The translations under genes were made by a program, and so were the position numbers. DNA of 26,221 bases from a virus (Duplodnaviria > Caudoviricetes): positions 1-26,221 of the IMG/VR virus record IMGVR_UViG_3300046830_000018, one strand, 5' to 3'. Shown here piece after piece: positions 16,326 through 26,220 of the stretch. The first letter of the stretch is position 1; the number at the start of each line of letters is the position of its first letter. A model generated the notes under the pieces. That model saw nothing but the letters and a program-made list of their open reading frames with translations, was not told the DNA's origin and did not search any database.

Positions 16326-17943
16326 TGGTTTCCTCAGTGGGTGTGTTCATTTCCTGGACAGTTGCGGCAGCAGACGCAACGCCCTGGGGATTTGCAGCAA
16401 GCTCTTGAGCCATTTGTGCTTGTTGAGCTTGTTGCATTTCAGCAGCAATTTGCTGCTCTGATTTAACCAGACCCAGAGGCGAAATACCCATGCTGCTACT
16501 CAATCTCTTGATCAACTCCGTGTTGTTGATGTAGGTCGCCATACCCTCAGGGCCAAGCGCTTGCTGGAGAATTTGAATAAACCGTGCAGTCTTTTCGAGG
16601 TCATTGCCGCGGCCCACACCAGACAAGCCCACGCTGACCATTGGCTGGACAAGTCCTTCCGGCAAGCGCTGCATTCCTCCCTGCCGCATATAAAGTTCGA
16701 GGCGTCTTCTGATATACGGGGCTTGGAATTCACTGGTCAGAATTGCGTAGACATTCCCGAGAGCATTTTCCGTTTGCAGGGTTTGGATGCGGACTTCTTC
16801 CGCTGTAACCCGCTCTGCATCTCGCATCTCGGCCAACATGAATGATGCCGCCAACCGCTGTTCAATTCTCTGAAGCGCGGTGAAAGCAACATTGATGTCA
16901 CTCCCCTTGTCAGTTCTGACAGTAAATACGTCCTCTGGGTTGCCCGGCAGATAAGCGCCGTTCGCAGCATCAGCAAGTGTCTTCGCATTGGTCACGCCAG
17001 ACGGCTTAACCAGATGCTTTACCTGGGCACTAACTAATGCACACTCAGACACTGCTTGAGACAATGCCTCTGCAGTTTGCAGGTCAGCGATGCAAGCTGA
17101 CTCGATGTAGCCAGGGCCATAGCTGCTGGCCTGGAACGAGGTCATCCGTAGCGGCAGCCACGGTGACGTTGACTTTTTCGAGTTACCCCTGGTCCCCTCA
17201 ATCTCCTTCTTGTTGATCTCCTGCCACCAGCTGACGCTTTCACCTTTCCACTGAACGCAGGTGTAAAGGTCGACCGTCCTCTCTGGCTGGCCGGTGTTCA
17301 TCGGGTCAGACGATTCGTCCATCCCATAGAACTCCTCGTCATCTTTCTGCAGCTCACCGCGAATACTTGCCGGCAACTGCTCAATCGCCATCGTTTCGCA
17401 AACAACAGCCGTCAGCGGTTCACCCACTGGATCGCGCAGCAGCACATAACGATTGAGCGGGTAGCAAACCAGACCGTCGTCGCCGACATAAACCAAGCAG
17501 TTGCCTGAAACGATCAAATGCAGCAGCGCCTCATGCACCACCACGCGGTCGTTGCTGGTCTCGATGCTGCGCAGAATTGACAGCTCAAGCTTGTTCAGCG
17601 CCAGCTCCATCTCCGACTGGATGGATGCAACCTCATCAGGGGACATGCCCTGATCCAGCATCTGCGCTTCCTGCTTCTCCATCTCGACTGGGTCGAGGGT
17701 GAAACGGAAGAAGGCTTCCGTTGGAGGCAAGATCGCCATCAACAGCTTTGCGCTGAGGTTGTTGCACCCGCGCTGGCCGATCCCGTTCCACGGCAGCACA
17801 TAGCTGTCGTAGTTCTCTTGCGAGGGAGTGTTTGACCTGGGGATCAAATACGGGATGGTCAGGGACGCCGAACGGCGTGCCCGATCCAGCCAGTAGTTCC
17901 GCTCGCTCTGCAAGCCGTCGTAGATGCTTTGGGCTGACTTCAT
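16318..17943 (-). CDS. gp8: Head-to-tail connector (portal)
   Basis: ASLTIPYLIP, GQRGCNNLSAKLLMAILPP...FFR, LIVSGN, PWLPLR, RDAERVTAEEVR, LGNVYAILTSEFQAP; 541 aa. Confidence 0.96.
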   Translation of the reverse strand: MKSAQSIYDGLQSERNYWLDRARRSASLTIPYLIPRSNTPSQENYDSYVLPWNGIGQRGCNNLSAKLLMAILPPTEAFFRFTLDPVEMEKQEAQMLDQGMSPDEVASIQSEMELALNKLELSILRSIETSNDRVVVHEALLHLIVSGNCLVYVGDDGLVCYPLNRYVLLRDPVGEPLTAVVCETMAIEQLPASIRGELQKDDEEFYGMDESSDPMNTGQPERTVDLYTCVQWKGESVSWWQEINKKEIEGTRGNSKKSTSPWLPLRMTSFQASSYGPGYIESACIADLQTAEALSQAVSECALVSAQVKHLVKPSGVTNAKTLADAANGAYLPGNPEDVFTVRTDKGSDINVAFTALQRIEQRLAASFMLAEMRDAERVTAEEVRIQTLQTENALGNVYAILTSEFQAPYIRRRLELYMRQGGMQRLPEGLVQPMVSVGLSGVGRGNDLEKTARFIQILQQALGPEGMATYINNTELIKRLSSSMGISPLGLVKSEQQIAAEMQQAQQAQMAQELAANPQGVASAAATVQEMNTPTEETNG

Positions 17944-19589: not shown

Positions 19590-20342
19590 TTAGATTACCG
19601 GTGGTTCCCACAGGTGAGGAGTACCTGAATCCAGGTCAAACTCACCGCGGCGCAAGATTCGGGCACATCGTGCCTGCGTGATTGCATACAGCTCATCAAA
19701 TCCTGCCTTCTCGTATTGATGCAGGACTTGCGCCCACAGCTCTTTTTCGGTGGTGGCAGTTAGCCATTCCTTGCTGCGAAATAGCGGGTTCTTGTCACCA
19801 ATCTTCGGGCAGCCGGGATAGTTGTCGCTGGTGTCGCCAACAAGCGTCTGCTTGTAAAACGCGACGTTGGCGTCCCACTCCTTAACGACAATCAGCTCAT
19901 CGTTCCGGTAGTGCTGTCCCGGCAGGGTGAGCATGTCCTTGTCACCGCTGCAGATGATCGCACCGGGCTCATTGAGCAATCCCAGAACGTCATCGCCCTC
20001 AACGCCCTTGAATCCACCAGTGAGCCAACCCCTGCTTCTGGCGTATTCACTCAGACCCTTAAGGAACGCGCCATAGCCCGGAGGCCTGCGGCGGTCCTTG
20101 CGGTTTGCCTTGTAGTCCGGCCAGATGTCATGCCTGAAGTTTCGGGTGTCACCCCGGACAAGGAATAGATCGTGTCCATGGAACTTGCTGAGCAGTCCTT
20201 CGACGTGCTCAGCGAAGTCCACCATCGCGTTCTGGTGATTGAGACGATGGATCCAATCACCACCACCGAAGTCAAAATCTTCAGTGTTCCCGGCAGCGAA
20301 GCGATAGGCATAGAACTCAAGGTCATAAAGGAGATAACTCAT
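19590..20342 (-). CDS. gp6: 5'-3' exonuclease (T7 gp6, FEN/PIN family)
   Basis: NFRHDIWPDYKANR, EGDDVLG, SGDKDMLTLPG, LVGDTSDNYPGCPKIG, ARCARILR. Confidence 0.93.
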   Translation of the reverse strand: MSYLLYDLEFYAYRFAAGNTEDFDFGGGDWIHRLNHQNAMVDFAEHVEGLLSKFHGHDLFLVRGDTRNFRHDIWPDYKANRKDRRRPPGYGAFLKGLSEYARSRGWLTGGFKGVEGDDVLGLLNEPGAIICSGDKDMLTLPGQHYRNDELIVVKEWDANVAFYKQTLVGDTSDNYPGCPKIGDKNPLFRSKEWLTATTEKELWAQVLHQYEKAGFDELYAITQARCARILRRGEFDLDSGTPHLWEPPVI

Positions 20343-20596
20343 GGTTCACAAGGCAAGATTTCGATCACCTTCGCCCTGTTGGGTCCGACAGAGAACTTCG
20401 GGATCGACAGCCGAAACTTCGCTGGGTCGAGGTTGTGCTCGGGGTACTGGACTGACCACCAACTCCACTGACAGAACCCACACTCCCGAGTACGAGCGAT
20501 GCGACCATCTTTTGTGTAGTAGGTGTTCTTGACCCTGCTCACCGTCTTCCCGCACTTGGGACACTCAGGAGCTGGGTAAAGCTTGCGGGCACCCAT
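20339..20596 (-). CDS. Stand-alone Zn-ribbon protein (NrdR-N/Ogr-like), 85 aa
   Basis: CPKC...SRVKNT...RIARTRECGFC; translationally coupled to both neighbours. Confidence 0.7.
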   Translation of the reverse strand: MGARKLYPAPECPKCGKTVSRVKNTYYTKDGRIARTRECGFCQWSWWSVQYPEHNLDPAKFRLSIPKFSVGPNRAKVIEILPCEP

Positions 20597-20814
20597 CAGT
20601 TGCCCTCCGATTCAATGATCCAACGGGCCATGGCCAGAGCGCCGTCCCACCAGGCCTGATCGTGAGCACTGTCGCTGTGGAATGCTCTGTCGTATTCCTC
20701 GCTGGCGTAATGGGCGTAGGCCAGCAGGGTGCCGTACTGAAGCTCAGCAGGGCGGTTCTCCTTGAACTCAGAAAGCTGAGCGATGATTTGCTCTCTTGTA
20801 GGCGGGTAGGTCAC
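20596..20814 (-). CDS. Hypothetical protein, 72 aa
   Basis: Helical-looking ORF filling the operon; TGATG coupling to the next gene; exact start uncertain. Confidence 0.6.
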   Translation of the reverse strand: MTYPPTREQIIAQLSEFKENRPAELQYGTLLAYAHYASEEYDRAFHSDSAHDQAWWDGALAMARWIIESEGN

Positions 20815-21007
20815 GGAAATTCATGTCGAGAAATTGGGGGTGGTCTTTTAAAAACCCAGAGCTGGGCAAGACCTTGGGGCGATCCAAAGCAGCCGGGATC
20901 TCAGACCAGTAGTCACGCCTGTTGAACTCAGCGATTGACCACTTGCCAGTCACCAGGCCACGTTCGAGGATTACTTGGAGTTGCGACTGGTCAATCAGTC
21001 GTTCCAT
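20768..21007 (-). CDS. Hypothetical protein, 79 aa
   Basis: In-operon ORF with GAGGAGG SD-like sequence just upstream of ATG 21007. Confidence 0.6.
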   Translation of the reverse strand: MERLIDQSQLQVILERGLVTGKWSIAEFNRRDYWSEIPAALDRPKVLPSSGFLKDHPQFLDMNFRDLPAYKRANHRSAF

Positions 21008-21515
21008 TCACCTCCTCAGCAAGGTGGCGGAGATACTGAGCCCATTCCTCCCGACTAATGCCTTCGTCGTTATCGACGACAGGAGGCAGCAACGGGTGGG
21101 CTTCAGCTTCAAAAGGGACGTAGGCGTCAGTGTTGGTCGGGTCAGCGGCACCAGCGATTGATCGAGGTTTGCCTGGCAGCAACGTCTTCTGCTCATCAGT
21201 CGGGGCAACAAACGGCGGAAGCTCGCGCTTAAACCCCCAGCTGCGGTTGGCCTTGCCGTTTTCCGTCGCATACAGCGAGGTCATTAGCTCAGCCCAAACC
21301 GGGAAACGGGAGAAGTCCTTGTGGCTGTAGGCCTGCACCCACTGCTCACACGCCCAGAAGAACTGAGCGTCATTGACTTCAGGGAACTCCGACTGGAAGC
21401 TGTGAAACTTCAGCTTGCAGACCACGTCTGACCAGCGGTCCTCGCGCTTGACGCGAAGCTGCTGCTGAATCAACTCAACGCCTGCCAGGAAAGTTGTCGG
21501 CGTTAGCTGTTCCAT
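20991..21515 (-). CDS. Putative helicase loader/inhibitor-like protein (SPP1 G39P / lambda P role), 174 aa
   Basis: N-terminal helical bundle ending FFWACEQWV...RFPVWAELM, resembling the FP-x-x-AE-hydrophobic signature of phage loader proteins; directly after an initiator-like gene. ORF is solid, function inferred. Confidence 0.5.
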
Positions 21516-22036
21516 GTCTCGATCGCTCGCTGCATGGCTGAGTCCTTAGGCATCAACACGCCGTCAGGCACCGGGGACACATCGTTGACGTAGCCCTCTT
21601 GCAGGCTCTGCCAACCCATCTCCGCGCCAAGCTTGGCCAAAGCCATCGCCTTCAATGGGTTCATCGCCAACACGCGAGTGACGTTCTGAAGCCACGCATT
21701 GCGGGTCCAGGTCGCCTTGCTTTTGTGCTTTGACCAGCGAGCTTCGTTCCACCACTCAGTGAGCAGGGCAGCCAGCTCGGCATCAGCGCCGTTGAACTCG
21801 TCCTCAATCTGAGCCGGGTGGAACTTCTCGAACTTGGATGGTCGAAGCTTCTGCTGAAGCTCAATCACCGTGTCCTGGGGTTCTTCGCAGATCCAGCCGC
21901 GATGGCGACCAGCGAAGGCAGCAATGGTTTCGATGGTTGAGAAGTCCTTCAGGCACTCGCCGCATTGGCGTACCCGTCGGTCTCCTCTCGTTTCAAGGAC
22001 ACGACTCTTTTCGTGCCCGCAATGGGGACATTTCAT
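21503..22036 (-). CDS. NrdR-type Zn ribbon fused to putative replication-initiator C-terminal domain, 177 aa
   Basis: [34 protein letters not shown] matches the NrdR N-terminal ribbon, with no ATP-cone. C-terminal EWW..R..K.K..T..AW...GWQSL resembles phage replication-initiator C-termini. Confidence 0.55.
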
Positions 22037-22404
22037 GGCAAATACCAGAGACGAATTTCAATCGTTGAATCCTTTTGCTTGGCTTTCTTGTGCTCGCCAA
22101 CAAGCCTGCTGATCACTGAAACCCGGTCGTCTCGCCACACCAGCTGGTTGCCGCAGTCGAGGATGGCGCCCATCAGATTGTCCAGATCCGCCCTAGCGGG
22201 GCCAGAAAACCTGAGGCTGAGAACGTTGACGGTTTCCAGTGGCGGATCAACCCACCACTCAGCAAGTTGTGCGCGAACGTCTGCCTTCCACTTCTTGTAA
22301 GCGGCAGGCATGTAAGGGACCTTTTGCCCAGAAAAGGATCTGGGCCGGGCCTTACTCATTAACGGGACATGCAGCGTTATGCGCCGCGCCACCATGCGAG
22401 GCAT
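22033..22404 (-). CDS. rusA: RusA-family Holliday junction resolvase
   Basis: [33 protein letters not shown] catalytic Asp pattern. Confidence 0.88.
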
Positions 22405-23054
22405 CAGAAAGGGATGTCCTCTTCTGCTGCCTGAGCTGCAGCCGTAAGTTGCTCACCAAACGCCGCAGCTTCCGGGTCAGTGACCGGCGCCACAGCACCG
22501 CCAGGGACAGCAGCAAAACCACCATCAGAAGGTTCTTCGCGGGTATAGGGGACGTGTTTGACGATCTGCAGGCCGTGCAGTTCAGCGGACAGGCCAACGC
22601 CTTCACCAGCGCGGCTCCAGCCCCAGAAATGGATCTTGGCGATAACAGTGGAGCCGTTGCCGATCAGTTCGCTCTCAGGCCACTTGGCCAGCTGCGAATC
22701 GACTACCAAGGGGCCGGCATTCTCCAGGCCCTGGGCCTTGTTGAGCAGCTTGCGCTTTGCCTTGAGCACCAGCATCCCAGTGGGCTCCTTCTCGCCCATG
22801 TCGTTCTTCTCTTCATGGCGCTTGAGGGGCATCCCGTTGGCGCTGACCTTGGGCTTGGCGCCATGGGCCTCGACCATGCAGGCACGGATCTGATCGCGCA
22901 GCTTGGTGATGGCGTCGTCGTTGGGGTCACCGAGCAGGTCAATTGACCACATCGGGTCGTCGCCTTCGCTGCGTGCCTGGGCCTTACCGAGCACCTTGGC
23001 CCAGTTGGCCATCATCGGCGGGGTGTAAATGATTTCGGACCTGTAGCCAGCCAT
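22404..23054 (-). CDS. gp2.5: Single-stranded DNA-binding protein (T7 gp2.5-like)
   Basis: TP...WAKV, PLVVDS, IGNGSTV, GVGLSAELHGLQIVKHVPY, acidic tail ending EEDIPF; directly after RNAP. Confidence 0.88.
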   Translation of the reverse strand: MAGYRSEIIYTPPMMANWAKVLGKAQARSEGDDPMWSIDLLGDPNDDAITKLRDQIRACMVEAHGAKPKVSANGMPLKRHEEKNDMGEKEPTGMLVLKAKRKLLNKAQGLENAGPLVVDSQLAKWPESELIGNGSTVIAKIHFWGWSRAGEGVGLSAELHGLQIVKHVPYTREEPSDGGFAAVPGGAVAPVTDPEAAAFGEQLTAAAQAAEEDIPF

Positions 23055-23060
23055 AAAAGC

Positions 23061-23076
23061 TCTGCAGTGGTGATGT
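23061..23076 (-). promoter_or_regulatory. Conserved motif upstream of SSB
   Basis: ACATCACCACTGCAGA, 14/16 identical to the gp11 copy. Confidence 0.6.
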
Positions 23077-23138: not shown

Positions 23139-25478
23139 CTACGAGAAGCAGTAAGGGTTTTGGCCTATTTCTCCCTCGCACAAATCGTTCACAAAAGGTG
23201 GCAGCGGCAAGTCCACATCGGCGTAGTAGCAGACCTCTTCACGCAAATCCGTCAGCCAGTCCGGCTTGTAGTGCTCACGCAGTTCATCCAGCAGAGTGTT
23301 GTGCAACTGCAGGGCATCTGTCGGCAGCGTTGCAAAGCAATCATGGTTCGTCAGGACCTGCTTCTGCACCCGCTGCATTCTTTGCACTACTGCATGACAC
23401 ATGCTGGCGTCGAAGGCGTGAATCACGTTGGCGGTGATGCCACGGTTGGTCGCCCTAGCGCTCAGTTCCCCCGGCACCACCCCTGAGTCCAGGGTCTCCC
23501 AGCGCTTAGTCCCGTTGATCACCGTGGAGACCTTCTGACGGGCTTCCTGTTCGACTCCAAGGGCAATGGGAAAGCCCATCGGTGAAGTGAACCGGATTCG
23601 CTGCTGCCGCTTCATACAGGCCTTGCTGACGCTTCTCAGCCATGCCTCCATCGCCACACAGCTCTTGAGTCGGTGGGCGATCACCACGTTCAACTTGGTG
23701 GCCAGGTATTGCGCCGGCCAGGTGTACTCACGGTCCCAGTCCTCCAGCTCGACCCGCGGGTTCCGCTGCATCAGGAAGTCGACCAACTGCTCGACAATTC
23801 CGAAGTGCCTCGCGCCATAGATCCGCGTCAGCGTTGGCCCCTTCGTCACCTCACGGGTGATTCCATGCTTCAGCCAGATCTCTGCCATCCGCGCACTGCG
23901 GAAGTCGAAGCCCTGCAGGTCACGCTGCAACCCATCGTTCAGGTCTTTAGCGACCTGGGCGTAGAGATCCTCTCGACTGTCGCCGATGCAATTGGTAAGA
24001 CGGGCCAACTCCCTGTCTCTCGTCAGGCAGGCGATGATCCCCATCCCGCTGCACGTTTGGTCAAACCTGACCGGCAAGTGCAGTTTCCTGCCTGGGTCCA
24101 CCAGCCAGTCGTTAATAGCCTTGGCGGCCTGCACGAACTGCCACGGGTCGGAGGCGTCCTTCCATAGATCCATCCGATCCAGAGGGCTCTGAGCCACCGC
24201 ACTGATCATGTGCAGGTTCTGCTTGCCCCAGTCCAGCCTTTCCTTCCAGGTCTTCTTGCCCAGGCCGTAGTGACCGGCCGCGGCCTTGAGCATCTCCTGA
24301 AAGCCGTCCTCACCCGCCACGGCTCCCAGGCCGAACTCCACCAACGCCTTCATGTGGTCAGGCCCCTGGTGGCCCACCAGCCGCGATGAGCAGTAGACCC
24401 GTCCGCGGAAGTCGAGGTCATGTTCAAGCCAGATCGGACGGCCAGCGATCTCCTCGGCCTGCAGCATTGCCTCCTCAATGCGAGCCCGCTTGCGCACCAC
24501 CTCACCGCCAAATTCATGACGCTCGGGCTCACGGGACACCGAGAACAGCGGCAGGTTGCAGTCCCATGCCTCGCGTTGCACCTCCGCCATCCACGGGTCA
24601 ACACGCATCTGCTGCTCTTCCAGCCCATTCACGATCTCCATCTGTGCCACCACAGAACCGACCGTGATGTGACTGAGGTCCATCGGCCGGCGACTGGAGA
24701 CCAACGGCTTCCCATCACGGCGGATGTCTGACCAGGGCTCCAGGGGCAGCAGCGACGGCAGCCGACGGACAGACATGGCCCGCGGCGGCTTGCTGCGAAT
24801 CAGCTCCTCTACGTCAGGGGTGGGCTTAATCAGCAGCTTGCGGCCCTGCTGCACCTCCTCCACGAGGTTGGTGCTGGCCATGAGCAGGTCCAACACCAGA
24901 CAGCCAAGCTCACGCTTCTCCGGCGTCGTCCACTCCTTAGGCGACACCTTGAGCTTGTTCATCACCTTGGCCGACACCGTTTTGCGGCCGAACTTCTTCT
25001 TGACCACCGAGAGCAGCACCATGCCGCGCTGGTCATGGACGACGGTGCCGTTCAGTTCATCCTGCAGCGCACGGCCGATAACAATCGCCAGCTTGGTTTT
25101 CTCATTGATGGTGCTGATCCGATCGATCACGCAGGTCAATGCAATCACCGCAATTGAGCGCGGGCCTCTATTGCAGAAGTGCAGAAGAAACTCCCAAGCC
25201 TGGTGATGTCTGCCAGCGCTGTACGGGTCAACAAGCTTCTTGGTCAGGAAGACATTGATGCCTTGGCTGAACAACTCGCCGTAGTTCTGGAAGAGGGCAT
25301 GGCCGTAAGAGGTCTTGCTTTCGCGGCCGGATGCCTTCAGCCTTGTCTGGTTGTTTTTCGCACGTTCCTCAGCCCGCTTAACCTCTCGCTGTTGTCTGCG
25401 GTGCTGGTCCTGTTCGGGTGTTTGCCCTGTCTGCATTTCGTCTGCGGCCACTGAAAACTGTCTGCTTCCGGCAGACAA
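23139..25478 (-). CDS. gp1: T7-like single-subunit DNA-dependent RNA polymerase
   Basis: DFRGRVY, DPWQF, motif A FDQTCSG, motif B REVTKGPTLTRIYG, NVIHAFDA, motif C NHDCF. Start uncertain (TTG 25478, GTG 25451 or ATG 25436). Confidence 0.96.
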   Translation of the reverse strand: MSAGSRQFSVAADEMQTGQTPEQDQHRRQQREVKRAEERAKNNQTRLKASGRESKTSYGHALFQNYGELFSQGINVFLTKKLVDPYSAGRHHQAWEFLLHFCNRGPRSIAVIALTCVIDRISTINEKTKLAIVIGRALQDELNGTVVHDQRGMVLLSVVKKKFGRKTVSAKVMNKLKVSPKEWTTPEKRELGCLVLDLLMASTNLVEEVQQGRKLLIKPTPDVEELIRSKPPRAMSVRRLPSLLPLEPWSDIRRDGKPLVSSRRPMDLSHITVGSVVAQMEIVNGLEEQQMRVDPWMAEVQREAWDCNLPLFSVSREPERHEFGGEVVRKRARIEEAMLQAEEIAGRPIWLEHDLDFRGRVYCSSRLVGHQGPDHMKALVEFGLGAVAGEDGFQEMLKAAAGHYGLGKKTWKERLDWGKQNLHMISAVAQSPLDRMDLWKDASDPWQFVQAAKAINDWLVDPGRKLHLPVRFDQTCSGMGIIACLTRDRELARLTNCIGDSREDLYAQVAKDLNDGLQRDLQGFDFRSARMAEIWLKHGITREVTKGPTLTRIYGARHFGIVEQLVDFLMQRNPRVELEDWDREYTWPAQYLATKLNVVIAHRLKSCVAMEAWLRSVSKACMKRQQRIRFTSPMGFPIALGVEQEARQKVSTVINGTKRWETLDSGVVPGELSARATNRGITANVIHAFDASMCHAVVQRMQRVQKQVLTNHDCFATLPTDALQLHNTLLDELREHYKPDWLTDLREEVCYYADVDLPLPPFVNDLCEGEIGQNPYCFS

Positions 25479-25959: not shown

Positions 25960-26220
25960 GTGGCTGACCTCAATGAAGAGCTTCAGGAACTTCACGCATC
26001 TGTTGTTCGTGCTGTTCGCTTACGCATTGACACCGGAGAGCAGTCCAACGACGACATCCGCACGGCTCTTCAGCTGCTCAAACAGAACAGCATCACCGCA
26101 GCCCTCGATAAAGACGAGGCCACAGAGCTGAAAGCCAAGATGGCCAAAAAACTGGACTTTTCGGCCCTTGCCGGAAAGGTCGTTCCGATTAGAGAGAACG
26201 AGCAGAAACGCCAGGCCTGA
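25960..26220 (+). CDS. Terminase small subunit (gp18-like, cyanopodovirus type)
   Basis: ELQELHASVVRAVRLRIDTGE...DIRTALQLLKQNSIT matches the ELH...RIxxGE...D+xxAxxxLKxNxI pattern of marine T7-like TerS; 86 aa, GTG start. Confidence 0.7.
   Translation: MADLNEELQELHASVVRAVRLRIDTGEQSNDDIRTALQLLKQNSITAALDKDEATELKAKMAKKLDFSALAGKVVPIRENEQKRQA

Follow-up and report, generated by a model that had tools for sequence, protein, structure and literature searches.

We analysed a 26,221-nt stretch of DNA (hereafter the window), a single partial phage contig from IMG/VR, with emphasis on the interval between its genes for a single-stranded DNA (ssDNA)-binding protein (SSB) and a 5'-3' exonuclease. The minus strand carries, in this order, a T7-like single-subunit RNA polymerase (RNAP; 23139..25478; phrog_414, E 7.5e-116), the SSB, a gp2.5-like binding and annealing protein (22404..23054; phrog_112, E 1.3e-21), a RusA Holliday-junction resolvase in place of T7 gp3 (22033..22404; PF05866, E 1.3e-9), five small open reading frames (ORFs) and the exonuclease, which is gp6-like (19590..20342; phrog_107, E 2.8e-37). 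Further 3' lie the genes for portal, scaffold, capsid, tail tubes, internal proteins and tail fibre. A preliminary description of this DNA had reported such a gene content from RNAP to tail fibre, with a slot of about 2 kb holding RusA and five small ORFs, and our analysis confirms it.

Three of the small ORFs, all on the minus strand, make up what we call the cassette. ORF177 (21503..22036; PF22811, E 1.2e-8) combines an NrdR-type zinc ribbon with a helical C-domain, ORF174 (20991..21515) is, on its predicted structure, a candidate helicase loader, and ORF79 (20768..21007) is a conserved small protein. The other two are accessory: ORF72 (20596..20814) and ORF85 (20339..20596), the latter with a second NrdR-type zinc ribbon (PF22811, E 9e-6, under the cut-off). 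Divergence at third codon positions is of the coding type in ORF177, ORF174, ORF79 and ORF72 when 10 relatives are compared; ORF85 had no match among these relatives. The interval from SSB to exonuclease measures 2.06 kb, so that neither gp4 (primase-helicase) nor gp5 (DNA polymerase) can fit there.

A cassette at the place of gp4

The closest annotated relatives of the window are Stopalavirus S38-C3 (AP013548) and the cultured Synechococcus phage S-SRP02 (MW822601), with RNAPs 48% and 42% identical to that of the window, respectively. Both have the gene order and the cassette of the window (41-43% for ORF177, 56-57% for ORF174 and 45-49% for ORF79), and both form part of 'clade S' in the accessible text of PMC12695635. 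Their GenBank records describe the cassette as an 'NrdR regulator' followed by hypothetical proteins, and the accessible portions of the two phage papers give it no role. The phages S37-C6 (Oinezvirus) and S31-C1 (Nohivirus) show the same order of RNAP, SSB, RusA, zinc ribbon, slot and exonuclease. They have in common with the window a T7-like RNAP and virion, RusA, the zinc ribbon and the lack of a DNA polymerase. However, their slot is filled by a TOPRIM-DnaB primase-helicase, which the clade of the window lacks.

This exchange holds across a larger sample of 80 cassette loci (the best 80 of 101, picked by ORF174) and 58 gp4 loci (picked by the gp4 of the sister clade). An adjacent ORF177 C-domain was found in 79 of the 80 cassette loci and ORF79 in every one, and gp4 in none; conversely, parts of the cassette occur in 0/58 gp4 loci. 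ORF72 is present in 12/80 cassette loci and 3/58 gp4 loci, and ORF85 in 3/80 cassette loci. Hence, the earlier reading of the five small ORFs as one module is not supported, as only three are conserved. Nor is RusA part of an imported module, as had been proposed, since 45 of the 58 gp4-bearing sister loci carry it too, along with all 66 cassette loci that have enough flank. RusA and the zinc ribbon are older than the swap between gp4 and the cassette.

A third set was picked by RNAP and comprises the best 80 of 189 loci. Because the ranking followed similarity to the window, the set favours its clade; 66 of these loci hold the cassette and one holds gp4, while 12 are too short and one (L230) has ORF79 alone. 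In L230:3164-8440, SSB, RusA and ORF79 are kept and a short ORF174-like tail is followed by a 421-aa unknown ORF, which may reflect a deletion or an alternative route. In three other loci (L026:7945-9372, L025:8314-9384 and L077:8219-9247), frames of 342-475 aa overlap the interval between RusA and ORF177, possibly as shadow frames or inserted genes.

The RNAP tree of 22 rows resolves the cassette phages (100/98) and the gp4 phages (100/100) as sister clades, and the same split was obtained with 47 rows (0.992), with long-branch warnings on the outgroups of the RNAP trees. In the exonuclease tree, the cassette clade is present (87) and the gp4 phages do not come out as monophyletic. The window groups with S-SRP02 in the RNAP and exonuclease trees; the published placement used a nine-gene tree. 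The comparison of synteny called for in the preliminary description places the cassette and gp4 at the same slot in sister clades. Because the sister clade keeps gp4 at this spot, the cassette likely replaced gp4 once, and the presence of gp4 in 3/3 outgroups makes a single replacement the simplest reading. The polymerase and gp3 would have been lost first, and gp4 exchanged later in one branch.

Loss of the replisome genes

As the window is a partial contig, absence was tested on a complete genome. G001 (41,412 bp) spans the entire window with 99.6% identity and its ends overlap by 139 bp; it therefore stands for the complete, circular genome. DNA_pol_A was found in 0/5 near-complete genomes (control 10/14). 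DnaB_C was absent from all 23 cassette-bearing records (G001 and 22 relatives, including 16 IMG/VR records at least 90% complete), was not found in S-SRP02 and S38-C3, and was present in both gp4-type sister records searched. Queries for gp3, gp4, gp5 and reductase (12 control proteins from P-SSP7, HTVC019P and P-SCSP2) matched none of 98 cassette-type sequences in tblastn, and the gp4 queries matched 60/60 sister sequences. A gp4 profile of 46 sequences, run in six frames at E 1, gave 0/18 for cassette-type pieces and 5/5 for controls. Outside the window, a Pfam scan of 36 of the 65 ORFs listed for that part of G001 returned tail fibre, lysozyme, integrase, MarR, a weak winged helix and the large terminase; polymerase families other than family A were covered by the Pfam scan alone. 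A Walker A motif was found in no window frame of at least 150 aa and, in G001, in the terminase only. Moreover, no window protein has an AAA+ Pfam domain, as a P-loop ATPase of the DnaC/DnaI type would. The loss of gp4 and gp5 in the complete genome is real. The preliminary description, which listed gp3, gp4, gp5 and ribonucleotide reductase as missing and would have been contradicted by gp4 or gp5 elsewhere in the genome, is borne out on this point.

Part of this loss was already known, as that description had acknowledged for polymerase-less cyanopodoviruses. The absence of polymerase and primase-helicase from S-SRP02 is stated in the Methods of PMC12695635 (Nature 2025), as far as the accessible text goes. 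The MPP-C cyanopodoviruses are also T7-like phages without a DNA polymerase, with primase/helicase kept as a core gene according to the consulted part of PMC9860041; the clade of the window differs from them in having lost this gene.

Existing annotations of these phages deserve a comment. ORF34 of S-SRP02 (MW822601 22389-23129; L001), the orthologue of the window exonuclease, is labelled 'DNA polymerase I', and so is a gene of S37-C6 (20750-21481; L003). The two products have 243-246 aa, 246 in the case of ORF34, and contain only 5'-3' exonuclease domains. The accessible text of PMC8790148 names ORF34 DNA polymerase I, uses a 'DNA polymerase' in a tree, and does not contain the words primase or helicase. 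S-SRP02 also carries a beta-clamp-like gene (L001:10903-11607) that fits the use of host Pol III, yet it is not general: it occurs in 6/80 cassette loci and 2/58 gp4 loci, and was not found in G001.

ORF174 as a candidate helicase loader

With no phage helicase, primase or polymerase, host enzymes are needed, and helicase loading is the step that requires a phage factor. We propose, with a probability of roughly 0.6, that ORF174, together with ORF79, is a loader of the G39P/VdhL type that would recruit host DnaB. The model of ORF174 (pLDDT 82) comprises a predicted G39P-like N-domain (aa 4-79), a long linker and a C-terminal helix. In a search of 48,161 PDB chains, its top match was 1NO1, the G39P protein of phage SPP1 (Z 5.5, rmsd 2.5, 67/67 residues). 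The G39P hypothesis preceded this search and was prompted by language-model neighbours: the nearest named clusters in the atlas, at 0.91, carry G39P_N (26% of members) and lambda P (11%). In BFVD, the sole significant row was the S38-C3 orthologue. Among the top 50 rows, 11 are functionally named, and the five of these with rmsd below 8 are all 'G39P', 'loader of G40P' or 'replisome organizer'.

The ORF174 family is small, with 44 representatives at 50% identity. In 9 of 42 representatives, all distant homologues, the ORF79 profile matches within the same polypeptide, as a fusion at the ORF174 C-terminus, which argues that both are parts of one unit. The ORF79 homologue of S-SRP02 (L001:21101-21337) is unannotated; it lies in another frame and overlaps the 3' end of p029, and several ORF174 homologues have such tails. 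A distant homologue of ORF174 (E 9.9e-6; HH probability 95%, E 4e-8) was found on G295:C85, directly after an ORF of 415 aa that contains internal DNA repeats in three copies, a layout of the O type. The N-terminus of this 415-aa protein looks like a helix-turn-helix by eye only. It is possible that this contig, seen once, represents a donor-type context for ORF174. Within G295:C85:4022-6110 (L251), the initiator-like ORF, the ORF174 homologue and a 109-aa ORF lie beside a phage-type exonuclease gene; a relationship between ORF79 and the 109-aa ORF was considered and found not significant. No further lambdoid context was seen in viral contigs, and none new in 401 cyanobacterial genomes. The siphoviruses S-CBS4 and KBS-S-2A are said to share hypothetical proteins with S-SRP02 (PMC9145550, in the portion consulted); the cassette was not found in either. 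A locus in a proteobacterial genome (L253; G615:C31) has a DnaT-like initiator and a P-like loader near dnaB, and resembles domesticated VdhL cases.

Several results weigh against a loader role. The PDB matches that follow 1NO1 are AAA+ lid domains tied with it within 1 Z unit (Z 5.2-4.5; 5.2, 4.7 and 4.6), and the search tool itself cautions that Z below 8 may reflect a common helical arrangement. The BFVD rows of the G39P type have E values of 1.2-3.4. PF11417 matches 0/88 members of the ORF174 family at E 1, a sequence search of the PDB gave no match for ORF174, its profile against SPP1 G39P yields an HH probability of 0.1%, and nothing under E 0.03 was obtained for 23 family representatives in PHROG. 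The 415-aa ORF of G295 has no PHROG match either, its initiator status being a layout read by eye. Likewise, profile tests gave no significant initiator match for the ORF177 C-domain, and no convincing iterons or origin repeats were found in the slot, where degenerate sites are possible. Since the replacement was one event, the mutual exclusion of cassette and gp4 counts as one observation and not as 138 independent ones. Finally, L230 lacks ORF177, most of ORF174 and gp4, although it is a single case among 68 informative loci and is possibly defective.

Comparison with known systems helps to weigh these data. According to the available text of PMC9860041, SPP1 uses host primase and polymerase, and recruitment of the SPP1 type was floated there as a hypothesis for polymerase-less cyanopodoviruses. 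The predicted N-domain of ORF174 superposes on residues 1-67 of G39P. However, the helicase that SPP1 loads is its own, G40P (gene 40), whereas the window phage encodes none; with no phage helicase present to load, host DnaB fits as the target. No homology to SPP1 G38P was found either. A precedent is VdhL1, a protein derived from a Vibrio phage: its match to 1NO1 has the same Z of 5.5, and it has a moderate promoting effect on host DnaB in vitro (PMC11087808, in the part consulted). ORF174 appears to share with VdhL and lambda O/P a small non-ATPase protein with a predicted G39P-like core, encoded behind an upstream partner gene. Unlike these systems, the window slot has no O- or DnaD-like helix-turn-helix gene and no iterons were seen, and its setting is a T7-like RNAP operon.

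Alternatively, ORF174 might bind host DnaB mainly to inhibit or sequester it and so halt replication of the host, with phage forks started by host restart at R-loops made by the RNAP or at recombination intermediates. The PDB entry of G39P is titled loader/inhibitor, neither initiator nor iterons were found in the slot, and the retained SSB/annealing protein, exonuclease and RusA would make recombination intermediates; the state of L230 points the same way. We nevertheless consider inhibition unlikely, because the cassette occupies the exact place of gp4, which fits a functional replacement, the G295 homologue follows an initiator-like gene, and L230 is a single locus. Also improbable is that the cassette has nothing to do with helicases and serves, for instance, transcription control or host takeover, gp4 having merely been lost and the helical match being due to chance. 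In favour of this reading, the zinc ribbon resembles that of NrdR and carries a regulator annotation, each link to G39P is weak taken singly, and the phylogenetic contrast is a single one. Against this, three methods converge on one family, a helicase-less phage still must reach a helicase, and the cassette is strictly kept across relatives whose RNAPs are about 40% identical. A divergent helicase, primase or polymerase hidden in a large unannotated ORF is very improbable: Pfam gave no significant match for ORFs of 804, 892, 1110 and 1496 aa, and the six-frame searches covered only family A polymerase and DnaB/gp4, but these large ORFs stand at internal-virion and tail positions and the Walker A survey found the terminase alone.

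Initiation, host and significance

ORF177 lies at the slot position expected of an initiator. Its model consists of a zinc ribbon (aa 1-36) and a five-helix C-region. The PF22811/NrdR match is limited to residues 1-53, and an identity with NrdR was ruled out because the ATP cone is missing. In gp4 loci, a stand-alone zinc-ribbon gene just 5' of gp4 matches the first ~55 residues of ORF177, as though ORF177 were this gene with an incoming domain joined to it. Foldseek against the PDB gave matches for the ribbon only, and no helix-turn-helix match was obtained. Two candidate relatives of the C-domain were rejected, SPP1 G38P (HH 2.9%) and the G295 initiator-like family (HH 0.1%, with negative bit scores below those of shuffles, so that the likeness seen by eye is not significant). 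An atlas score of 0.89 to Phg_2220_C is a lead only. As ORF177 has neither a helix-turn-helix match nor a significant tie to known initiators, an initiator is not demonstrated. The preliminary description had inferred an initiator and expected structural links of the slot ORFs to initiators or loaders. Such a link was obtained for ORF174 and SPP1 G39P and for no initiator, and the label of a lambdoid module with an initiator goes beyond what the data show. Lambda O and P form an initiator/loader pair in which a winged-helix initiator directly precedes the loader; ORF177 instead begins with a zinc ribbon.

A winged-helix gene does exist outside the window, about 8 kb from the cassette (G001:C1:16426-16884, L085; S-SRP02 p013; S38-C3 42290-42655). 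Genes of this p013 type occur in 18/18 cassette genomes and in 0/13 gp4-type records (5 of the 13 being less than 90% complete), which is again the same single contrast. This protein could supply origin binding in trans. It was not accepted as proof of an initiator, as its scores against HTH_36, RepL and O-like families are weak, and the gp4-type S37-C6 has, at a comparable position, another winged helix that scores better against O-like families (E 1e-7). Five copies of the 8-mer CAGTGGTG (a raw count) lie around the winged-helix gene (L085:16091-16375 and 17580-17713), and another is at 23065-23072 of the window, between RNAP and SSB.

Under the mechanism that we propose, the origin would be marked or opened by the phage RNAP or by the winged-helix protein encoded elsewhere. 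ORF177 may act as an adaptor, with its zinc ribbon on DNA and its C-domain on the loader. ORF174 would be a non-ATPase loader delivering host DnaB helicase to phage DNA, ORF79 possibly being its split-off C-terminal part, and host primase and Pol III would carry out synthesis. In T7, gp2.5, gp6 and gp3 handle ssDNA, primer removal, concatemers and junctions, and SSB, exonuclease and RusA presumably serve these tasks here. A wider scenario is tentative, and we would not expect all of its parts to hold jointly: the clade may have lost its replisome in two stages and assembled a chimeric initiation system from a captured initiator C-domain on the resident ribbon (ORF177), a split G39P-type loader, a winged helix acting in trans and an RNAP-opened origin for host DnaB, DnaG and Pol III.

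Beyond the replication genes, the small subunit of the terminase is encoded on the plus strand (25960..26220; PF11123, E 2.5e-9), opposite to RNAP, and the genome is therefore rearranged and not colinear with T7. Blocks comprising the terminase, a MarR-integrase pair, the RNAP operon and the virion genes differ in order and orientation among these phages, as seen at 25960-26220 of the window and at L085:11194-19828, which is unusual for T7-like genomes. One further locus (L068) shows frameshifts throughout RNAP, integrase, portal and capsid, and is either a decayed element or a poor assembly. Regarding the host, the relative S-SRP02 infects Synechococcus. Within the family to which a Cyanobium bin belongs, 4/401 genomes contain cassette contigs; others were found in differently labelled bins, and no integration site was seen. 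For three cassette phage contigs, L237 (G024), L239 and L240, the bin titles name Klebsiella, Sphingomonadaceae and Lysobacterales. G024 belongs to the same family as the Cyanobium bin, so bin labels may mislead on the host.

T7-like phages are known from textbooks for a self-contained replisome of four proteins. The loss of polymerase and primase-helicase was known; what is new is the content of the slot, together with its precise swap for gp4 and a loader candidate that resembles G39P in its predicted fold. A full-text search, which covered few subscription journals, found no loader assignment for a T7-like phage; the supplements of PMC12695635 may annotate the slot. According to its accessible text, PMC9860041 did not settle the mode of replication of cyanopodoviruses that lack a polymerase, and the clade of the window goes one step beyond these phages. 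As the candidate genes are present in a cultured phage-host pair (p028, p029 and the unannotated ORF79 homologue of S-SRP02), the question of how such phages replicate is now testable. Surveys that use gp4 or polymerase as markers overlook the cassette clade. If our proposal is true, ORF174 would provide a first handle on a phage protein that loads cyanobacterial DnaB.

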